Positions 11,343-53,158 of a stretch of DNA of 64,000 nucleotides are shown piece after piece (positions within the stretch are counted from its first letter, which is position 1; every line of letters begins with the position of its first letter). The notes below the pieces were generated by a model that worked only from the letters and a program-made list of their open reading frames with translations, was not told where the DNA came from and did no database searches. This DNA comes from an uncultured Methylopila sp. (GTDB lineage: Bacteria; Pseudomonadota; Alphaproteobacteria; Rhizobiales; Methylopilaceae). The translations under genes were made by a program, and so were the position numbers. The stretch spans positions 1 to 64,000 of the forward strand of contig CABHPB010000141.1 of assembly GCA_902168115.1 (NCBI GenBank). Direction: 5' to 3'.

Positions 11343-12260
11343 TTATCGGGTCGGCGGAACGGCCGCCCCGAGGTGGCTTTCCAGAAAGGCGATCGTCCGG
11401 TCCCAGGCGAGCGCGGCCGCCTTGCGCTCGTAGCGCGCGGGGTTGGTGTCGTTGTTGAAGGCGTGGTTGGCGCCTTCGTAGATCTCGATCTGGTATTCCT
11501 TGCCCGCGTCCTTCAACGCTTTGTCGAAGGCGGGAACGCCGGCGTTGATGCGCTCGTCGAGGCCGGCGTAATGCAGCAGCAGCGGCGCCTGCACCTGCGC
11601 GGCCTGCTCGGGAGCGAGCGGCTGGCCGTAATAGGCGACGACCGCCTTGAGGTCGGACGCGGCGACCGCGAGGCGGTTCGCCATTCCCCCGCCCCAGCAG
11701 AAGCCGACCGCCCCGACGCTCTCGTTCGACTCCGGATGCGACAGCAGGAAGGTCACCGCCTCGACGAGATCGCGCGTCGTCTTCTCGAGGTCGAGCGCGC
11801 CGATCATCTCGCGCGCCTTGTCCTCGTCCTCCGGGGTCCCGCCTGCGGGCGACAGCAGGTCGACGCCGAAGGCGAGGAAGCCGGAGACGGCAAGACGCCG
11901 CGTGACGTCCTGGATGTGCGGATTGAGGCCGCGGTTCTCGTGGATGACGATCACCGCCGGGCGCTTTCCGCCGCCTTTCGGCCGGGCGAGCAGGCCGGAA
12001 ATCTCGCCGCTCGCGCCCTGATAGCTCGCGCGGTCGATGGCGAGGCGCTTGTCGTCCGGGGCGACGATCGTGGCGCGGGCGTAGTCGTTCGACAGCGACG
12101 AGAGCAAGACCGTCGCGGCGGCGGAGGAGCCGGCGAGCGCCGTCAGCCGCTCGAGGAAGTCGCGGCGGCCCATCTCGCCATGGGTGTAGCGGTCGTAGAG
12201 CGAAATGGCGCGGGCGTCAGGGCGGGTCGTCTCGGTCACGGTTTGCTCGCCCCGGGTCAT
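11343..12260 (-). CDS. Dienelactone hydrolase family protein, Tat-secreted.
   Basis: It has the twin-arginine signal GEMGRRDFLERLTALAGSSAAATVLL. The DLH fold motifs GFCWGGG (nucleophile elbow) and HxF are present. The start was chosen at the MTRGEQ.. ATG at 12260. The track start at 12323 adds a low-complexity extension. The start is uncertain. Confidence 0.75.
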   Translation of the reverse strand: MTRGEQTVTETTRPDARAISLYDRYTHGEMGRRDFLERLTALAGSSAAATVLLSSLSNDYARATIVAPDDKRLAIDRASYQGASGEISGLLARPKGGGKRPAVIVIHENRGLNPHIQDVTRRLAVSGFLAFGVDLLSPAGGTPEDEDKAREMIGALDLEKTTRDLVEAVTFLLSHPESNESVGAVGFCWGGGMANRLAVAASDLKAVVAYYGQPLAPEQAAQVQAPLLLHYAGLDERINAGVPAFDKALKDAGKEYQIEIYEGANHAFNNDTNPARYERKAAALAWDRTIAFLESHLGAAVPPTR

Positions 12261-12675
12261 ATACGAACGATAGCTGGCGGACCCTAGCGCGCTCGACCGT
12301 ATGGCCGCAAAGCCTTCGCGCAATGTTGAGCTTGCCAGTTTGATCTTCAGGGCCCCTGAGTCATCGTGGGCCGGCAGCGCTCAGGCGCGCTTTAGCGGAA
12401 GTGATCGGAGCGTTAGGTGACGTTCAATCAACCGAAGCTTCCCAAGGGCCTCAAGACGCGCCGTCACCACAACAACAAAGGTCGCAAGCAAATGCGTCTT
12501 GGGCGGACGGTCGATCAGGTCAAGGCGTTGGCGAAGCGGCTCGGCATTCCCTACGTCACGCGCACAGAACGCGACAGCAAGGACGAGTGACACGCTTGCG
12601 GCCGGAAGGATAGCGCCGATCGCTGACCCTATCGACGTCGCCGCTAAGACTGCGCGCCCGAACGACTCCGGTGTC

Positions 12676-13242
12676 TCACTTCGGCGGCGTCACCGACCGC
12701 GCGACGGACTCGAACTCGCTTTTGCGGCCCGCAAAACTCTTCTTCTCGCCGACGCAGACGATGGTCGTGCGGCCCTTCGGCGTGTCGAGCACGACAAGAT
12801 AGGACCGCACCTCGGTCGACTGCGGCTCGCCCTCGATCGGCTTGAAGTCGGCGACGACCGCAGCGCCCATCAGGCCCTGGTGCTCGAACGGCTCGACGGT
12901 CGAGACGTCGTAGCGCAGCGCGAGGGTGGCGCGGATCAGGTCAGTCCACTCCTTCTTCTTGGTGAAGTCGTTGATGTCGGTCTGGCTGAGCGCCTCGCTC
13001 GGGTCGGCGCCGGGAGCCTGGCTCGCCTGGAAGGCGATCTTGCAGCCGGTCTCGACCTCGCCCTTCTTCTGCACGGCGTAGACCGCCGCATAGCGCGGAT
13101 CGCCCTCCGCCTTGCGGGCCTCGTAGCCGTCCGGCGGTTGCAGGACGAGGCCAGTCGCCTCGTCGCGCACGGGTTCCGCCGCGATCGCGACGCCGCCGAG
13201 CAGGCCTGTGATGACGAGACTAACCAAGCCCTTGGGGCTCAT
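12676..13242 (-). CDS. Secreted hypothetical protein of 188 aa with a signal peptide.
   Basis: The ATG at 13242 has GGAG 7 nt upstream. The signal peptide reads MSPKGLVSLVITGLLGGVAIAAEP. The long overlapping plus-strand ORF 12499..13668 is an Arg/Leu/Ala-rich antisense artifact. Confidence 0.6.
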   Translation of the reverse strand: MSPKGLVSLVITGLLGGVAIAAEPVRDEATGLVLQPPDGYEARKAEGDPRYAAVYAVQKKGEVETGCKIAFQASQAPGADPSEALSQTDINDFTKKKEWTDLIRATLALRYDVSTVEPFEHQGLMGAAVVADFKPIEGEPQSTEVRSYLVVLDTPKGRTTIVCVGEKKSFAGRKSEFESVARSVTPPK

Positions 13243-13558
13243 CCGAGGCTCCGATACGCATCCCCGCTTCCGGCGCTCTTTGCACAGCGGCGCCGGTTTC
13301 GTCCCGCCGCTCTCGATCACGTTACCTCGGATCGGCGGCGAACCGTAGCAAATGCACGATTTAAGCTAAACGACGACCCTCCGAAGGCGCCATGCGGAGG
13401 ACATGCCCGCGAGATTTTTTTGAATGATTCAAATCTGAGCTTGCAATCGAGGCGCGAGGCCGTCATAAGCGCGCTCCTTCGCGAGGCCTTCGGGTGCGGG
13501 TTCGAAACGCCCGGCCGGCGCGGTCCCTCTGGGTCGCCGTGTTCCGCCGAACGGAGTC

Positions 13559-13633
13559 GAGTGTGTAGCTCAGTGGTAGAGCGCCGGGCCGAAAGCCCGG
13601 AGGTCGCCGGTTCGAGTCCGGTCATGCCCACCA
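13559..13633 (+). tRNA. tRNA-like element 1. Cloverleaf arms are recognisable and the anticodon loop is CCGAAAG (GAA, Phe-like), but C33 is atypical and the acceptor stem is weak. It may be a pseudo-tRNA.
   Basis: It has TAGCTCAGTGGTAGAGC as the D-arm, ccggg/cccgg as the anticodon stem, and GCCGG-TTCGAGT-CCGGT as the T-arm, followed by CATGCCC-A-CCA. The 5' acceptor GAGTGTG pairs with only 1 mismatch and 2 wobbles. Folded by eye only. Confidence 0.4.
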
Positions 13634-13706
13634 GGATAGCTCAGACGGGTAGAGCAGATGACTGTTAATCATCGTGTCGCGGGTTCGAATCCCGCTCCAT
13701 AACGCT
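13630..13706 (+). tRNA. tRNA-like element 2. Its D, anticodon (CTGTTAA, anticodon GTT, Asn-like) and T arms are canonical, but the acceptor stem does not pair. Its first 4 nt overlap the ACCA end of element 1. It is probably a pseudogene or a recombination remnant.
   Basis: It has TAGCTCAGACGGGTAGAGC, GATGA-CTGTTAA-TCATC and GCGGG-TTCGAAT-CCCGC. The 5' ACCAGGA pairs with the 3' TCCATAA at only 3 positions, and no CCA is encoded. Confidence 0.35.
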
Positions 13707-14060
13707 CCGGAACGGTCGTAAAGGCCGTACTCCTCTGAAAGGGGACCGGACGCGCGCTTCAGTCGCCGATCCGGTTCCGGTCAAGCCTTCGGGCTTTCCC
13801 GCCTCCATTTCGTAGACACCGTGAGACCGGCTCTGCGCCGCGGCGGATACCGCCACGGCCGGGCGCCGGACCGTCTTCGCGACCGGCCGCGCTCGCTTCG
13901 GCGACAGCGTCCGCTCGCGTCGCACGGCCGTCCCCCTGACGTGTCTCAAGCCCCGGCCCGCATGGCCTTGCGGGAAGCGCGCGTCCGGAACCTGACGTCC
14001 TGAAACAGAACTGAACGCCGCTCGCGGAATGGTCCGCGCGCGAACGCATGGAGGCGTGTC

Positions 14061-15212
14061 ATGAACCGGCGTCTTTGGATGCTGAACGTAACGGTGAAGG
14101 ACGGCCAGCGCGCCATCCTGACCCGCGACGGCCGGTTCGAGCGACTGCTCGGCCCCGGCCGTCACCGGCTGTTCGACCCTCTCGCGCGGCTCTCCGCCGA
14201 GCTGGTCGACGTGATCGGCGGCGAGATGGCGGTCGACCGCTACCTCGCTCTCGCGAGCGCGCGCCCCGACGTCGCGGCGGAGAACTTCGCCGTGGTGGAG
14301 ACCGGCGCAAGCGAGGTCGCGATCGTGCGGTTCGACGGCCGTCCGACGCACCTGCTCGGCCCCTGGGCCAAGCGCGTGTTCTGGACCGCGGTGACCCGCG
14401 TCGAGGTCGAGCGCGTCGACGTCGCGGCCGAGCCGCGGGTGGCCGAGCGCCACCTGAAGCAGCTCGACCGCACGCAGACCCGCTTTGCGAGCGAGACCGT
14501 GGTCGAGGCTCACGAGGCCGGCCTGCTGTTCGTCGACGGCAAGCTGGTCGAGCGCCTCGCGCCCGGCCGCCACGCGTTCTGGACCGTCGACCGCAAGGTC
14601 GAGGTCCGCCGGGTCGACCTGCGTCCGCAGCCTCTCGAGGTGACGGCGCAGGAGATGCTGACCAAGGACCGCGTGGCGCTGCGCGTGACGCTGACCGCCT
14701 TCCGCCGGATCGTGGATCCGGTGAAGGCGGCCGAGACCGTCGCGGACGTGGACGGCTGGCTGTACCGGCTGGCGCAGTTCGCGATCCGCGAGGCGGTGGC
14801 GAGCCGCACCCTCGACGAGGCGCTCTCCGCCAAGGAGGCGCTGAACGAGGAACTGCGCGCTGTCGTGGCCGGCAAGGTCGCGGCGGCGGGCGTGGAAGTC
14901 ACGGAGCTCGGCGTGAAGGACGTGATCCTTCCCGGCGAAATCCGCGAGCTCGTGAACAAGGTGGTGGAGGCGGAGCGGCTCGCGAAGGCGAACAACATCC
15001 GCCGCCAGGAGGAGACCGCGGCGACCCGGTCCCTGCTCAACACCGCCAAGGTGATGGAGGAGAACCCTCTCCTGCTTCGCCTGAAGGAGCTCGAGTCGCT
15101 GGAGAAGCTCGTGGAGAAGGTCGGCCGGATCGACCTCCACGCGGGCGACAGCGGCGGCTTCGACGCCCTGCTCACCAAGCTCGTGCGCCTCAAGGCGCCC
15201 GACGCAGCGTGA
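14061..15212 (+). CDS. SPFH / band 7 (stomatin-prohibitin-like) domain protein with a long N-terminal domain.
   Basis: The SPFH signature LTKDRVALRVTLTAFRRIVDP is present, followed by a coiled-coil tail. GGAGG lies 6 nt before the ATG. The 491-aa minus ORF opposite it is an artifact. Confidence 0.8.
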   Translation: MNRRLWMLNVTVKDGQRAILTRDGRFERLLGPGRHRLFDPLARLSAELVDVIGGEMAVDRYLALASARPDVAAENFAVVETGASEVAIVRFDGRPTHLLGPWAKRVFWTAVTRVEVERVDVAAEPRVAERHLKQLDRTQTRFASETVVEAHEAGLLFVDGKLVERLAPGRHAFWTVDRKVEVRRVDLRPQPLEVTAQEMLTKDRVALRVTLTAFRRIVDPVKAAETVADVDGWLYRLAQFAIREAVASRTLDEALSAKEALNEELRAVVAGKVAAAGVEVTELGVKDVILPGEIRELVNKVVEAERLAKANNIRRQEETAATRSLLNTAKVMEENPLLLRLKELESLEKLVEKVGRIDLHAGDSGGFDALLTKLVRLKAPDAA

Positions 15213-15284: not shown

Positions 15285-16529
15285 TCACGCTTCGGCGGCG
15301 GCGCGGAGGCGCCGGAGATCGTCCTCGATCTTGAGCGCGGTCCCGGCACGCTCCAGCGCGAGCCGGGAATGCCGCCGGGCCGCCGAGGCGAAGCGCCCGT
15401 CGCCGATCCCTTCGAGTGTGCGAAACGCCTTCTGGAGCCTCACCCCGACCTCGACCACGCCGGCGCCGTCGCGCGCGATGCCGTTGAACAGGTCGTCGAA
15501 CAGATCGTCCGGCTCGATCGACGGCGCGAAGACGCGGGGAAATTCGGGCTCGGCGTCGGGCCGCCCTTCCGCCCAGATCGCAAGCGTGCGCACGCCGCGG
15601 CCGATGACGTCGATCGCCGTGCCGGGATCGTTGATGCCGGGCGAAAGGGCTCGCGAGCCGATCTCGGAGAGAACGCACAGCCCGAAGCGCGGATCCTGGT
15701 CGAAGGAGCGGACGTCGTCGATCGCGAAGGCGGCGCGCACATGCTCGGCTGCGTCCTCGCCGAGACCGGCCAGCCACGCGACCGGCCGGCTCGGATCGAC
15801 GAAGACGCCGGGAAGCGCGGCGACGAAGACGCGCCCGTCGGTTTCGTCCGCGACTTCGGCGAGAGCCGCCATGTCGACGTGCTGCACATAGCCGATCTCG
15901 CTCGCGAACACCGGCGTCGTTCCCTCGGGCGGTCCGGACGCGGCGTCGCGCCAGCACGCGGCGCCAAGAAAGGGATTGTCGCGCCGATCGCGCATGGCGG
16001 CGGCGGCCGCCTGCTCGACCTGCGCCGTGGTTTCCGTCACGCGACCGAGCGTCGACAGGTGATCGATCCAGCGCACGAGCGTGACGACTATCAGCACGAT
16101 GACGCCGATGGTGACGGCGAACAACACGACCCGCCCGGCCTCGTCATAGAAGCCGGCGCTGATCGCCACGATCCCGACGAGCGCGAACAGGAAGGAGCCG
16201 AGGAAGGCCGCGAGCGCGTTCTGCGTCGTCGGGTCCTCGACGACGAGGCGTGAGGCGCGCGGCGTCACGTTGCTCGTCGCGGCCGAGAAGGCGGAGACCA
16301 TAGCGCCGAGCGAGAAGGTCGTAACGCCCAGCATGCTGGCGGCGATGATGCCGAGGATGTTGTCGACGGCGTCGGCGCCGATCTTCGACGACGCCGAGGG
16401 CGGGATCGCGGGGCTGACGACTGCGGCGAGGAGCGCTGTGACGACCGCGCCGAGCGAAAACAGGCTTGCCCTGAACCAGATCCGGCGCATGAGGCGCGAA
16501 AGCGTCCAAGAGAGGCGCGAGGCCGACAT
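15285..16529 (-). CDS. DUF2254-family integral membrane protein.
   Basis: It has N-terminal TM helices and the conserved SPGINDPGTAIDVIGRG motif. The protein is 414 aa. Confidence 0.7.
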   Translation of the reverse strand: MSASRLSWTLSRLMRRIWFRASLFSLGAVVTALLAAVVSPAIPPSASSKIGADAVDNILGIIAASMLGVTTFSLGAMVSAFSAATSNVTPRASRLVVEDPTTQNALAAFLGSFLFALVGIVAISAGFYDEAGRVVLFAVTIGVIVLIVVTLVRWIDHLSTLGRVTETTAQVEQAAAAAMRDRRDNPFLGAACWRDAASGPPEGTTPVFASEIGYVQHVDMAALAEVADETDGRVFVAALPGVFVDPSRPVAWLAGLGEDAAEHVRAAFAIDDVRSFDQDPRFGLCVLSEIGSRALSPGINDPGTAIDVIGRGVRTLAIWAEGRPDAEPEFPRVFAPSIEPDDLFDDLFNGIARDGAGVVEVGVRLQKAFRTLEGIGDGRFASAARRHSRLALERAGTALKIEDDLRRLRAAAEA

Positions 16530-16601
16530 ATCTGCTCTTTTTCTTTCTGTGGGCCGCTGCGCGCGGTGTAGCGCGTTTGGGCGCCGCGCAAAGACGCCCG
16601 G

Positions 16602-52699: not shown

Positions 52700-53158
52700 A
52701 GGTTTCGCTTGCGTGGAGGGGCGAACGCCCTTATCTCCCCGCTTGCCCAATTTCGCGCGTGCCTGTGTCGTGTGTCGGGTTGGCGGGAACTCCCCGCCGG
52801 GCAACCCGATGGCCGGAAATCCCAACCGGCTCTAAGTCGCCTCTCCGGCGGCGGACGCGACGTGAAGCAACGACGTAGAGGGCTTTTTTGGTCTCTGTCG
52901 GCTCTCCAAAGGCCGGCGACACTAAAGAGGCGACTACTTCCTTGCCGGGCGCGTGGCGCGGGTAACTCCCAAACCAAGCGTGGCGACGGTTCCCCAACAA
53001 CGGACATCCGTGTCCGGGGATTGTCGTGACTACGGCGTGATCGAGCGGTTCGGCTTCGCGAGAGGTCGGCCACGGAACGACGCAACTTTCGAACCGCGTG
53101 TCTCCACACCGCGCGGATCGAGGGCGCGCCGATCCACCACGCACATCGTGTTTGGGAC
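52700..53158 (+). ncRNA. Long structured 5' leader of the ornithine decarboxylase gene, a candidate alphaproteobacterial speF-leader RNA motif.
   Basis: This is a 460-nt ORF-free stretch with several local hairpins (for example ggcggg-aactc-cccgcc), directly upstream of odc. Known alphaproteobacterial odc genes carry a conserved leader RNA. I assigned it by context only. Confidence 0.4.

Follow-up and report, generated by a model that had tools for sequence, protein, structure and literature searches.

Tandem tRNA-like elements as probable non-decoding modules of a structured slipin leader RNA in Alphaproteobacteria

We analyzed a 64-kb stretch of DNA from an uncultured Methylopila sp. (contig CABHPB010000141.1, positions 1 to 64,000; "the window" below). 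The locus of interest lies between a lipoprotein-like open reading frame (ORF) and a slipin (stomatin/SPFH) gene at 14061-15212 (+), and contains two tandem tRNA-like elements on the plus strand, module 1 at 13559-13633 and module 2 at 13634-13698. These elements are, very probably, conserved non-decoding modules of a structured leader RNA of the slipin gene, and this RNA is apparently undescribed. The explanation of the two elements is exaptation, not decay. The leader would extend from ~13476 to 14060 (~585-590 nt), with its own sigma-70-like promoter, and would be co-transcribed with the stand-alone slipin gene; co-transcription is the simplest reading because the promoter is located upstream and a terminator scan of 12000-14500 found no site at 13400-14060. 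In the 5' to 3' direction, the leader is composed of a 5' domain, module 1 (optional), module 2 (nearly universal), small hairpins, a 3' domain (universal), a further hairpin, the Shine-Dalgarno (SD) sequence and the ATG. As a mechanism, we tentatively suggest cis control through an exchange of helices on which the tRNA-shaped module 2 imposes a bias; module 1 would be an RNase P site in those copies that have it. The identity of the leader and this mechanism, taken as one reading, are on balance probable.

Recurrence of the modules and linkage to slipin genes

The resemblance to tRNA goes beyond chance: the tRNA-model E-values for the window are 3e-10 and 3e-8, and more than 100 other loci have the module pair in the same position. 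Calling of tRNAs was performed with ARAGORN on the 64-kb window and with the Rfam 15 covariance models, including the tRNA model RF00005. For a comparison of neighborhoods, the contigs of six slipin homologues (71-87% identity) were taken. In all six, a gap of 700-850 nt precedes the gene, and the tRNA-model matches are equally far from the start codon. The anticodons called vary among these relatives (Val-GAC, Val-CAC, '???', Thr, Ile, Asn, or none). The intergenic stretch from ~13403 to the ATG aligns throughout, with long invariant blocks between variable stems.

More copies were collected in two pattern scans. The scan of genomes, with one genome per species, used the pattern GCGCCGNGGCGGATANCGCC from the 3' part of the region and gave 120 matches; this pattern was too loose, since ~100 of the 120 were chance matches in unrelated phyla, and an nhmmer profile of the alignment sorted out 22 real copies. 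The scan of metagenome contigs used a more specific pattern, taken from the strand that closes the 3' domain, and gave at least 120 matches. Both patterns are located outside the tRNA-like elements, and the presence of these elements in the matches is thus an unbiased observation. The coordinates of the parts given below were mapped from the alignment onto the window.

The conserved stretch, from ~13441 to the slipin ATG at 14061, is present in at least 147 distinct copies. The carriers belong to Hyphomicrobiales and Rhodospirillales (Dongiaceae) or come from soil metagenomes; they include Bradyrhizobium sp. STM 3557, Rhodoplanes tepidamans, Dongia deserti, and metagenome-assembled genomes (MAGs) of Dongiaceae, Xanthobacteraceae and Rhodomicrobiaceae, and the metagenome matches are mostly from soil samples. 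In a plasmid collection, no full-length copy was detected; only the tRNA-like part had matches there, to ordinary tRNA tandems. The slipin gene is directly downstream in all 29 of the genome and assembly matches to the profile. Among the metagenome matches listed that have at least 450 nt of downstream sequence, the slipin ORF starts 283-420 nt after the pattern in 87 of 90, and the distance is 283-308 nt in most copies. Overall, slipin directly follows the RNA in 116 of the 119 testable copies among the matches listed, whereas the other neighbors differ in every locus. The RNA thus has a constant position upstream of one gene family and a covarying secondary structure (see below), both of which are expected of a cis-acting leader.

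The three exceptions are decayed copies. The RNA is truncated in locus L205; in L175 (1793-2300) and L210 (2021-2530), a complete 3' domain has no slipin homologue downstream, apparently through loss or replacement of the gene. Other variants concern the RNA itself. Both modules are absent from L208 (~837) and L226 (~1271), where the 5' domain continues straight to ...GCGCTCCAGCGCTCCG..., and L153 and L237 have the 3' domain only, preceded by unrelated sequence, which in L153 is a terminator followed by an A/T-rich stretch. A strongly diverged copy is found in a Rhodomicrobiaceae MAG (L079, 1080-1560), beside a slipin gene whose product is 59% identical to that of the window; its 3' domain is barely recognizable, and its modules reach full-length tRNA scores of 62.7 and 49.7 bits and are called by ARAGORN as 'Gln' TTG and CTG.

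Structure, decoding capacity and origin of the modules

Helices were tested by the share of cells paired and by compensated pairs, with slid partners and shuffles as controls. The initial annotation of this locus had described D, anticodon and T arms in both elements, and the fit of the Rfam tRNA model bears this out. Module 1 has a full cloverleaf, a 7-bp acceptor stem and an A73-CCA tail, as found by ARAGORN, by Rfam and by covariation. It is the single tRNA called by ARAGORN in the window (13559-13633, +; tRNA-Phe, anticodon GAA), and RF00005 matches it with 59.3 bits at 13559-13630 (model positions 1-71). The acceptor pairs are G1:C72, A2.C71, G3:C70, U4.G69, G5.U68, U6:A67 and G7:C66; thus, the A2.C71 mismatch and the two wobbles (U4.G69 and G5.U68) that had been pointed out are present, and Rfam flags the pair 2:71 as non-canonical. 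The unusual C33 of the loop CCGAAAG (C32-C33-G-A-A-A37-G38) is likewise real when the sequence is read. However, the same 17 nt of the 'anticodon' arm can form an alternative 6-bp stem, CCGGGC/GCCCGG, with a CGAAA loop, and C33 looks odd because CCGAAAG is readable in this way and not as an anticodon loop.

In 16 homologues, 91.4% of the cells of the module 1 cloverleaf are paired, and compensation is found for 14 of its 21 pairs, among them every one of the seven acceptor pairs. In the family as a whole, the 'anticodon' loop is mostly a GNRA-type tetraloop: it has 4 nt in 35 copies (GAGA, GUGA, GAAA, GUAA, GCAA) and 7 nt in only 3 of 80. The CCA end is not conserved, the 3' tail being ACCA in 26 of 87 copies, ACAA in 19 and TCAA in 6. 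The T-loop is kept in 87 copies and gone in ~40, 35 of which have a short hairpin instead, so that the module is replaced by a plain hairpin in ~30% of copies; intermediates that lack the D arm only, or the T arm only, were found as well. As a decoding tRNA, module 1 therefore has the acceptor stem and lacks both a 7-nt loop with U33 and a conserved anticodon.

Module 2 is made up of D, anticodon and T arms and an acceptor stub of 3 bp, and is delimited by Rfam and covariation. The Rfam tRNA model matches it with 52.1 bits at model positions 5-66 only, and ARAGORN did not call it as a tRNA in the 64-kb window. The initial annotation had described its acceptor strands as unpaired. This is correct for most of the acceptor; nevertheless, GGA at 13634-13636 can pair with TCC at 13696-13698, and the would-be positions 1-4 are indeed the ACCA end of module 1 (13630-13633). 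With this stub, 99.5% of the cells of the cloverleaf are paired in 114 sequences, with 55 compensated cells, compared to 31-51% for slid controls; covariation is seen in the anticodon and T stems, next to an invariant D stem. In a subset of sequences only, a longer acceptor (GCG-A-GGA with UCC-AR-CGC) can form, without compensation: the outer GCG:CGC extension pairs in ~75% of 27 sequences, and its 5' strand GCGA is present in a minority of the 114. The short acceptor is the usual state across copies, and therefore the 'unpaired acceptor' of the window is the norm of the family.

The loop of module 2 (13662-13668) reads CTGTTAA in the window, with the triplet GTT, as had been reported. It has 7 nt in 127 of 134 copies, and these 127 copies contain 28 different triplets (TGT in 25, GTT in 22, TTT in 17, GAT in 16, and others). 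Positions 34 and 35 drift freely, whereas U33 is kept in 83%, U36 in 80%, A37 in 96% and A38 in 86% of copies. The context formed by these kept positions is a requirement for t6A37 in real ANN-reading tRNAs. No partner ('specifier') for this loop was found in 107 full-length sequences, in which the mutual information of positions 33-36 with all other columns is at most 0.25 bit and no column of the leader covaries with positions 34-35; the idea of a specifier in cis was rejected. Thus, module 2 has the cloverleaf and elbow of a decoding tRNA, without a 7-bp acceptor or a conserved anticodon.

These observations bear on the possibility that both elements are unusual but working tRNA genes (for Phe and Asn in this genome) that are merely co-transcribed with slipin. 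The acceptance of module 1 as a tRNA with a CCA end by ARAGORN and Rfam, and the 7-nt loop of module 2 with its U33 and A37, are in favor of this possibility. However, the 'anticodons' differ even in the closest relative (87% protein identity), in which module 1 is called GAC in a 9-nt loop and module 2 is GAT; the 28 triplets and the missing acceptor stem of module 2, together with the tetraloops of module 1, make functional tRNA genes very improbable. The initial annotation had argued that these are not two ordinary decoding tRNAs, and had allowed that this view would fail if both folded as canonical tRNAs with good scores. Module 1 does fold so by both programs, whereas module 2 is not a complete tRNA; with 28 triplets and a 3-bp acceptor as a rule in module 2, and mostly GNRA-type tetraloops in module 1, the argument holds for the family.

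It was also suggested that the elements are tRNA pseudogenes or the scar of a recombination or integration event. In a single sequence, the truncated acceptor of module 2 does look like a scar, as does the lack of any spacer between the elements, and module 1 decays to a hairpin in some lineages. Nevertheless, decaying pseudogenes or an attachment-site scar of a mobile element are hardly credible. Both cloverleaves are kept by compensatory substitutions, indicative of strong purifying selection across two alphaproteobacterial orders, and the linkage to the slipin gene is constant while the other neighbors change. The aligned copies have a mean column identity of 57-66%, which, together with the covariation, excludes a recent near-identical horizontal spread. 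Each tRNA 3' end occurs once in the 64-kb window, with no relevant direct repeats, and no integrase-like ORF or gene was found near the locus (in the ORF list) or in the gene lists of the six relatives. A third suggestion, that of tRNA-like decoys, came closest of the three, in that the elements do have a tRNA shape without decoding; they are, however, domains of a larger leader RNA and not free-standing.

The tandem of modules aligns in one piece to tRNA-Val|tRNA-Lys gene pairs of E. coli (73-75% identity over 94% of the query). This one-piece alignment suggests an origin from such a pair, in agreement with the Val calls of ARAGORN and with the U36-A37-A38 loop. Judging from the alignment, the most likely ancestor of the modules is a tRNA-Val/tRNA-Lys gene pair that was co-transcribed; they would have lost the features of decoding and aminoacylation while keeping the L-shape, i.e., the elbow of D- and T-loops and all the stems.

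Another explanation, which overlaps with ours and which we regard as possible though doubtful, is tRNA punctuation: the modules would serve mainly for cleavage of the primary transcript by RNase P, and by RNase Z or RNase E, which would detach the 5' domain or a tRNA-sized RNA from the slipin mRNA and would set the 5' end and the stability of this mRNA. Co-transcripts of tRNA and mRNA and tRNA-like cleavage signals are established in other systems (the E. coli tufB operon, t-elements of plant mitochondria, and mascRNA of MALAT1). Like t-elements, mitochondrial tRNA punctuation, MALAT1/mascRNA and tufB, the leader contains a non-decoding tRNA shape within a longer transcript. The covarying 7-bp acceptor of module 1, its purine discriminator and its frequent NCCA end are consistent with processing, as is the conservation, in both modules, of the T and D loops for elbow recognition. 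On the other hand, RNase P usually requires a 12-bp acceptor/T-stack. Module 2, the universally kept one, has a 3-bp acceptor stub in most copies and would be a poor substrate. From its structure, module 1 would qualify as a substrate of RNase P where it is present, and module 2 mostly would not; furthermore, module 1 is a plain hairpin in ~30% of copies. The known processing signals are single cleavage signals, whereas the leader has two modules and large covarying domains, and a processing role leaves the conserved 5' and 3' domains unexplained.

Promoter, domains and a possible exchange of helices

The putative promoter region (13414-13469, +) includes an A/T-rich UP-like stretch, a -35 box TTGCAA (13441-13446), a 17-nt spacer and a -10 box CATAAG (13464-13469). 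The consensus of 120 copies aligned on the first helix is aaAAaatt...CTTGCAa-N17-(T/C)AT(A/T)AG; a strict promoter scanner missed this promoter because the -10 box has no T at position 6. From the spacing alone, transcription would start at ~13475-13477, near the first helix. The palindrome TTGAATgATTCAA that had been singled out upstream of the elements is present at 13420-13432; it lies in the A/T-rich stretch upstream of the conserved -35 box and is itself not conserved.

Outside the tRNA-like modules, 85 pairs in 19 helices have 94% of cells paired, compared to 37-42% for slid partners, and 36 of these pairs are compensated, compared to 17.9 +/- 2.5 in shuffles (none of 500 as high). RNAalifold, applied to 25 sequences, predicted 105 pairs, of which 41 are compensated. 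The 5' domain (13477-13556, +; RNAalifold and pair counts) is closed by a helix of 13477-13480 with 13553-13556, which has local covariation (e.g., GCATTCG/CGAATGC in locus L086); it further contains an inner helix (13485-13487 with 13546-13548) and two hairpins (13496-13514 and 13517-13543), both from RNAalifold and pair counts. In helices 1-5, which make up this domain, 94-100% of cells are paired, with compensatory changes in each. A different role was considered for the 5' block CUCCUUCG, which is exactly complementary to the common SD region CGAAGGAG. Sequestration of the SD by this block was rejected as a general mechanism, as changes in the block are matched by changes in its local partner (e.g., GCATTCG/CGAATGC in L086/L043) while AAGGAG is retained at the SD.

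Two small hairpins on the plus strand, at 13713-13727 and 13730-13744 (CUCC...GGGG), follow module 2. In the first (helix 6), three of four pairs are compensated; in the second, GGGG changes to GGAG or GGAA with matching changes on the 5' side when the alignment is read by eye, and some relatives have a third hairpin here. The 3' domain (13746-13988, +), the only part found in every copy among the matches listed, including L153 and L237, is closed by a long-range helix of 13746-13760 with 13974-13988. An extension of this helix by GGG:CCC, predicted by RNAalifold, was discarded because by eye it is less supported than the local CCCC/GGGG hairpin. The interior of the domain (13761-13973, +) is a multi-helix junction (helices 8-18) with variable covarying stems, the block CTCAAGCCCCGGCCCGC and two invariant hairpins, CGGC-UCUGC-GCCG at 13828-13840 (+) and GGCGG-AUA-CCGCC at 13842-13854 (+). 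A hairpin at 14019-14042 (+; helix 19, stem CGCGGA/TCCGCG at 14023-14038), with five of six pairs compensated, precedes the ribosome-binding site, in which the SD GGAGG occupies 14050-14054 (+); every aligned copy has GGAG 6-8 nt upstream of the ATG. By inspection, the frequent indels of 1-2 nt in the aligned region and the compensatory pattern argue against a hidden coding sequence. The z-score of the single-sequence fold of the whole region is -0.24, a measure that is uninformative at this GC content.

The size and complexity of this RNA (~590 nt, ~20 helices, invariant unpaired blocks) are closer to those of large bacterial noncoding RNAs (ncRNAs) than to those of typical leaders. One could therefore consider a stable RNA that acts in trans or together with slipin, as a partner or cargo of an SPFH cage or as a tRNA-mimicking sponge, with adjacency of the genes serving co-expression. 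The protein, with no evident membrane segment and with an N-terminal domain of 146 residues that has no Pfam match, might also accommodate such a role. Against it, the end of the RNA invariably keeps a short, constant spacing to the SD and ATG of one and the same gene, with no terminator and no second promoter consensus; the RNA kept after gene loss in L175 and L210 is weak support at best. We consider an RNA of this kind improbable.

The slipin has 383 residues, with the Pfam domain PF01145 (Band_7) at residues 147-318 (E = 2e-30), and stomatin structures match residues 147-351. No Pfam domain matches residues 1-146 (14061-14498), which contain two similar beta-rich segments, RLLGPGRHRLFDP and RLAPGRHAFWTVD; the absence of a transmembrane segment was judged by eye. 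An AlphaFold2 model made from an alignment of 20 sequences has a mean predicted local distance difference test (pLDDT) score of 51.7, which is too poor to classify the N-terminal domain. PADLOC found no defense-system match for slipin.

Returning to the leader as a cis-acting RNA, three strands on the plus strand are relevant to its possible function. The first, CGCTCCGG (13703-13710), is located directly 3' of module 2 and can pair with 13746-13754. The second, CCGGACGCGCGCTTC (13746-13760), is nearly invariant and is shared, pairing with either the first or the third; the third, GAAGCGCGCGTCCGG (13974-13988), is the 3' strand of the long-range helix predicted by RNAalifold. Specifically, CCGGACGCG (13746-13754) is complementary both to CGCUCCGG (13703-13710) and to CGCGUCCGG (13980-13988), the latter 230 nt downstream, and the two helices are mutually exclusive. 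In 114 sequences, 93.3% of the cells of the local helix are paired (17-52% in slid controls), as are 86.7% of the cells of the long-range helix (23-55% in slid controls). Only one nucleotide of the shared strand varies, A13750, and it covaries in each of the two helices: with T13706 in the local helix (U:A in 93 copies, C:G in 8, U.G in 4) and with T13984 in the long-range helix (A:U in 97 copies, G:C in 12, G.U in 4). The two partner strands also tend to lose the terminal pair together (Fisher p = 6e-10, with kinship ignored). The two helices that share 13746-13754 hint at a conformational switch or a strand-exchange platform.

If the leader acts in cis on slipin expression, the following steps would be the most likely. 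The CCGGACGCG:CGCUCCGG helix would extend or stack on the 3-bp stub of module 2, so that the 5' strand of the 'acceptor' would be supplied from downstream; pairing of CCGGACGCG with CGCGUCCGG instead would close the 3' domain. Module 2 would be a rigid tRNA-shaped handle, and its folding, or its binding by a tRNA-recognizing factor, might bias the exchange of strands, which in turn might affect how the mRNA folds, how it is processed or how stable it is. Where present, module 1 would be a plausible RNase P site owing to its full acceptor stem; it is not the core of the mechanism because many copies have no module 1. A more specific version, which we think unlikely, would be that of a new alphaproteobacterial class of large leader RNAs with a captured tRNA-Val/tRNA-Lys pair, whose surviving tRNA-shaped domain is a sensor handle that, when bound or modified, flips the leader between the local and long-range helices, and thereby couples the state of tRNA processing or translation to the synthesis of a cytoplasmic SPFH/slipin protein. 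The t6A37 machinery, an enzyme of T-arm modification acting as a chaperone, and RNase P are candidate factors for such a handle, the first because module 2 keeps U36-A37-A38 while positions 34-35 drift.

Several observations weigh against this reading of the leader. Each of the competing helices has a single covarying pair, in related sequences; the pair counts are numbers of sequences and not of independent events, and for neither helix is the number of pairs with a change on both sides above that of shuffles. The minimum-energy fold of a single sequence contains either helix or neither, depending on the homologue. The energies of the two helices are ambiguous, with constraints out of register in some homologues. 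No conserved pairing that would mask the ribosome-binding site was found, nor any link of the alternative helices to the SD or to a terminator. Co-transcription and action in cis are predicted from position. Finally, L208 and L226 have neither module, and L153 and L237 have nothing but the 3' domain; therefore, the modules are not essential for whatever the 3' domain does.

Comparison with known RNAs and the surrounding sequence

At gathering thresholds, Rfam 15 gave only the two tRNA matches at the leader, and relaxing the limit to E <= 5 added only noise. In the literature on tRNA-like elements combined with slipin, SPFH, stomatin or leader, no description was found, and the same holds for a 50-genome ncRNA survey in a look-up of terms. 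The leader shares with tandem tRNA genes (RF00005, tRNA-Val/tRNA-Lys) the cloverleaf arms, G18G19, the T-loop GGTTCGAnTCC and the head-to-tail order; in contrast to them, its modules have no conserved anticodon or CCA, carry GNRA-type tetraloops and a 3-bp acceptor, and are embedded in the ~590-nt leader of one gene. YrlA and other Y RNA-like molecules (RF02553) are also bacterial ncRNAs with a tRNA-like domain in which T and D arms are kept and decoding is absent. However, the match of the leader to RF02553 has 25.5 bits, compared to a gathering score of 69, and runs across the module junction (model positions 27-81); none of the six annotated neighborhoods has a Ro/Rsr or RtcB gene, and the architecture and context of YrlA differ.

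T-boxes and other tRNA-related cis-regulatory leaders are likewise long and structured, lie 5' of their genes, have alternative helices and are connected with the shape of tRNA. T-boxes bind tRNA, whereas the slipin leader contains tRNA-like folds; it has no Rfam T-box match, no terminator/antiterminator and no specifier partner, and its gene is not one for aminoacyl-tRNA or amino acid functions. The leader resembles the large orphan RNAs OLE, GOLLD, ROOL, HEARO and raiA in having several hundred nucleotides, many covarying helices and invariant unpaired blocks, and GOLLD is often found beside tRNA genes. It differs from all of these in the absence of an Rfam match, in its strict location 5' of one gene family, in its restriction to Alphaproteobacteria, and in the internal position of its tRNA-like folds.

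The modules matter for annotation. Across genomes, tRNA finders call module 1 as Phe, Val or 'tRNA-???', and module 2, in some genomes, as Thr, Ile or Asn; if an annotation takes over such calls, its number of tRNA genes would be too high, and the modules should be flagged as non-decoding. The leader, with its ~590 nt, ~20 covarying helices and two exapted tRNAs, and with its abundance in soil metagenomes, is a candidate for the short list of large orphan RNAs of bacteria. The copies document how tRNA genes were exapted and decayed, step by step, to become structural domains of an RNA, and lineages that have no module 1, no modules at all, or the 3' domain alone provide natural material for dissection. 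How the cytoplasmic slipins of bacteria function and are regulated is poorly understood; so elaborate a dedicated leader suggests that slipin expression is tightly controlled, and gives a handle for finding the signal.

The upstream neighbor of the leader locus is the lipoprotein-like ORF at 12676-13251 (-). On its other side, the initial annotation had noted low GC at 12300-12680, and the GC content over 12300-12600 is indeed 0.575-0.59. The spacer concerned (12324-12675, between a dienelactone-hydrolase-like gene and the lipoprotein-like gene) is ~350 nt long; in the nearest relative, Methylopila sp. M107, it has only ~107 nt and cannot be aligned. It is thus lineage-specific sequence that is not conserved and is unrelated to the leader.

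A direct repeat of 43 nt with 74% identity links 13438-13480, which covers the promoter and first helix of the leader, to 16501-16543, at the start of an ORF at 15285-16529 (-), and is probably due to chance. Elsewhere in the window, two Rfam families match above their gathering scores on the plus strand: the alphaproteobacterial small RNA ar45 at 52745-52887 (46 bits) and, 9 nt later, the speF leader at 52896-53016 (39.8 bits).

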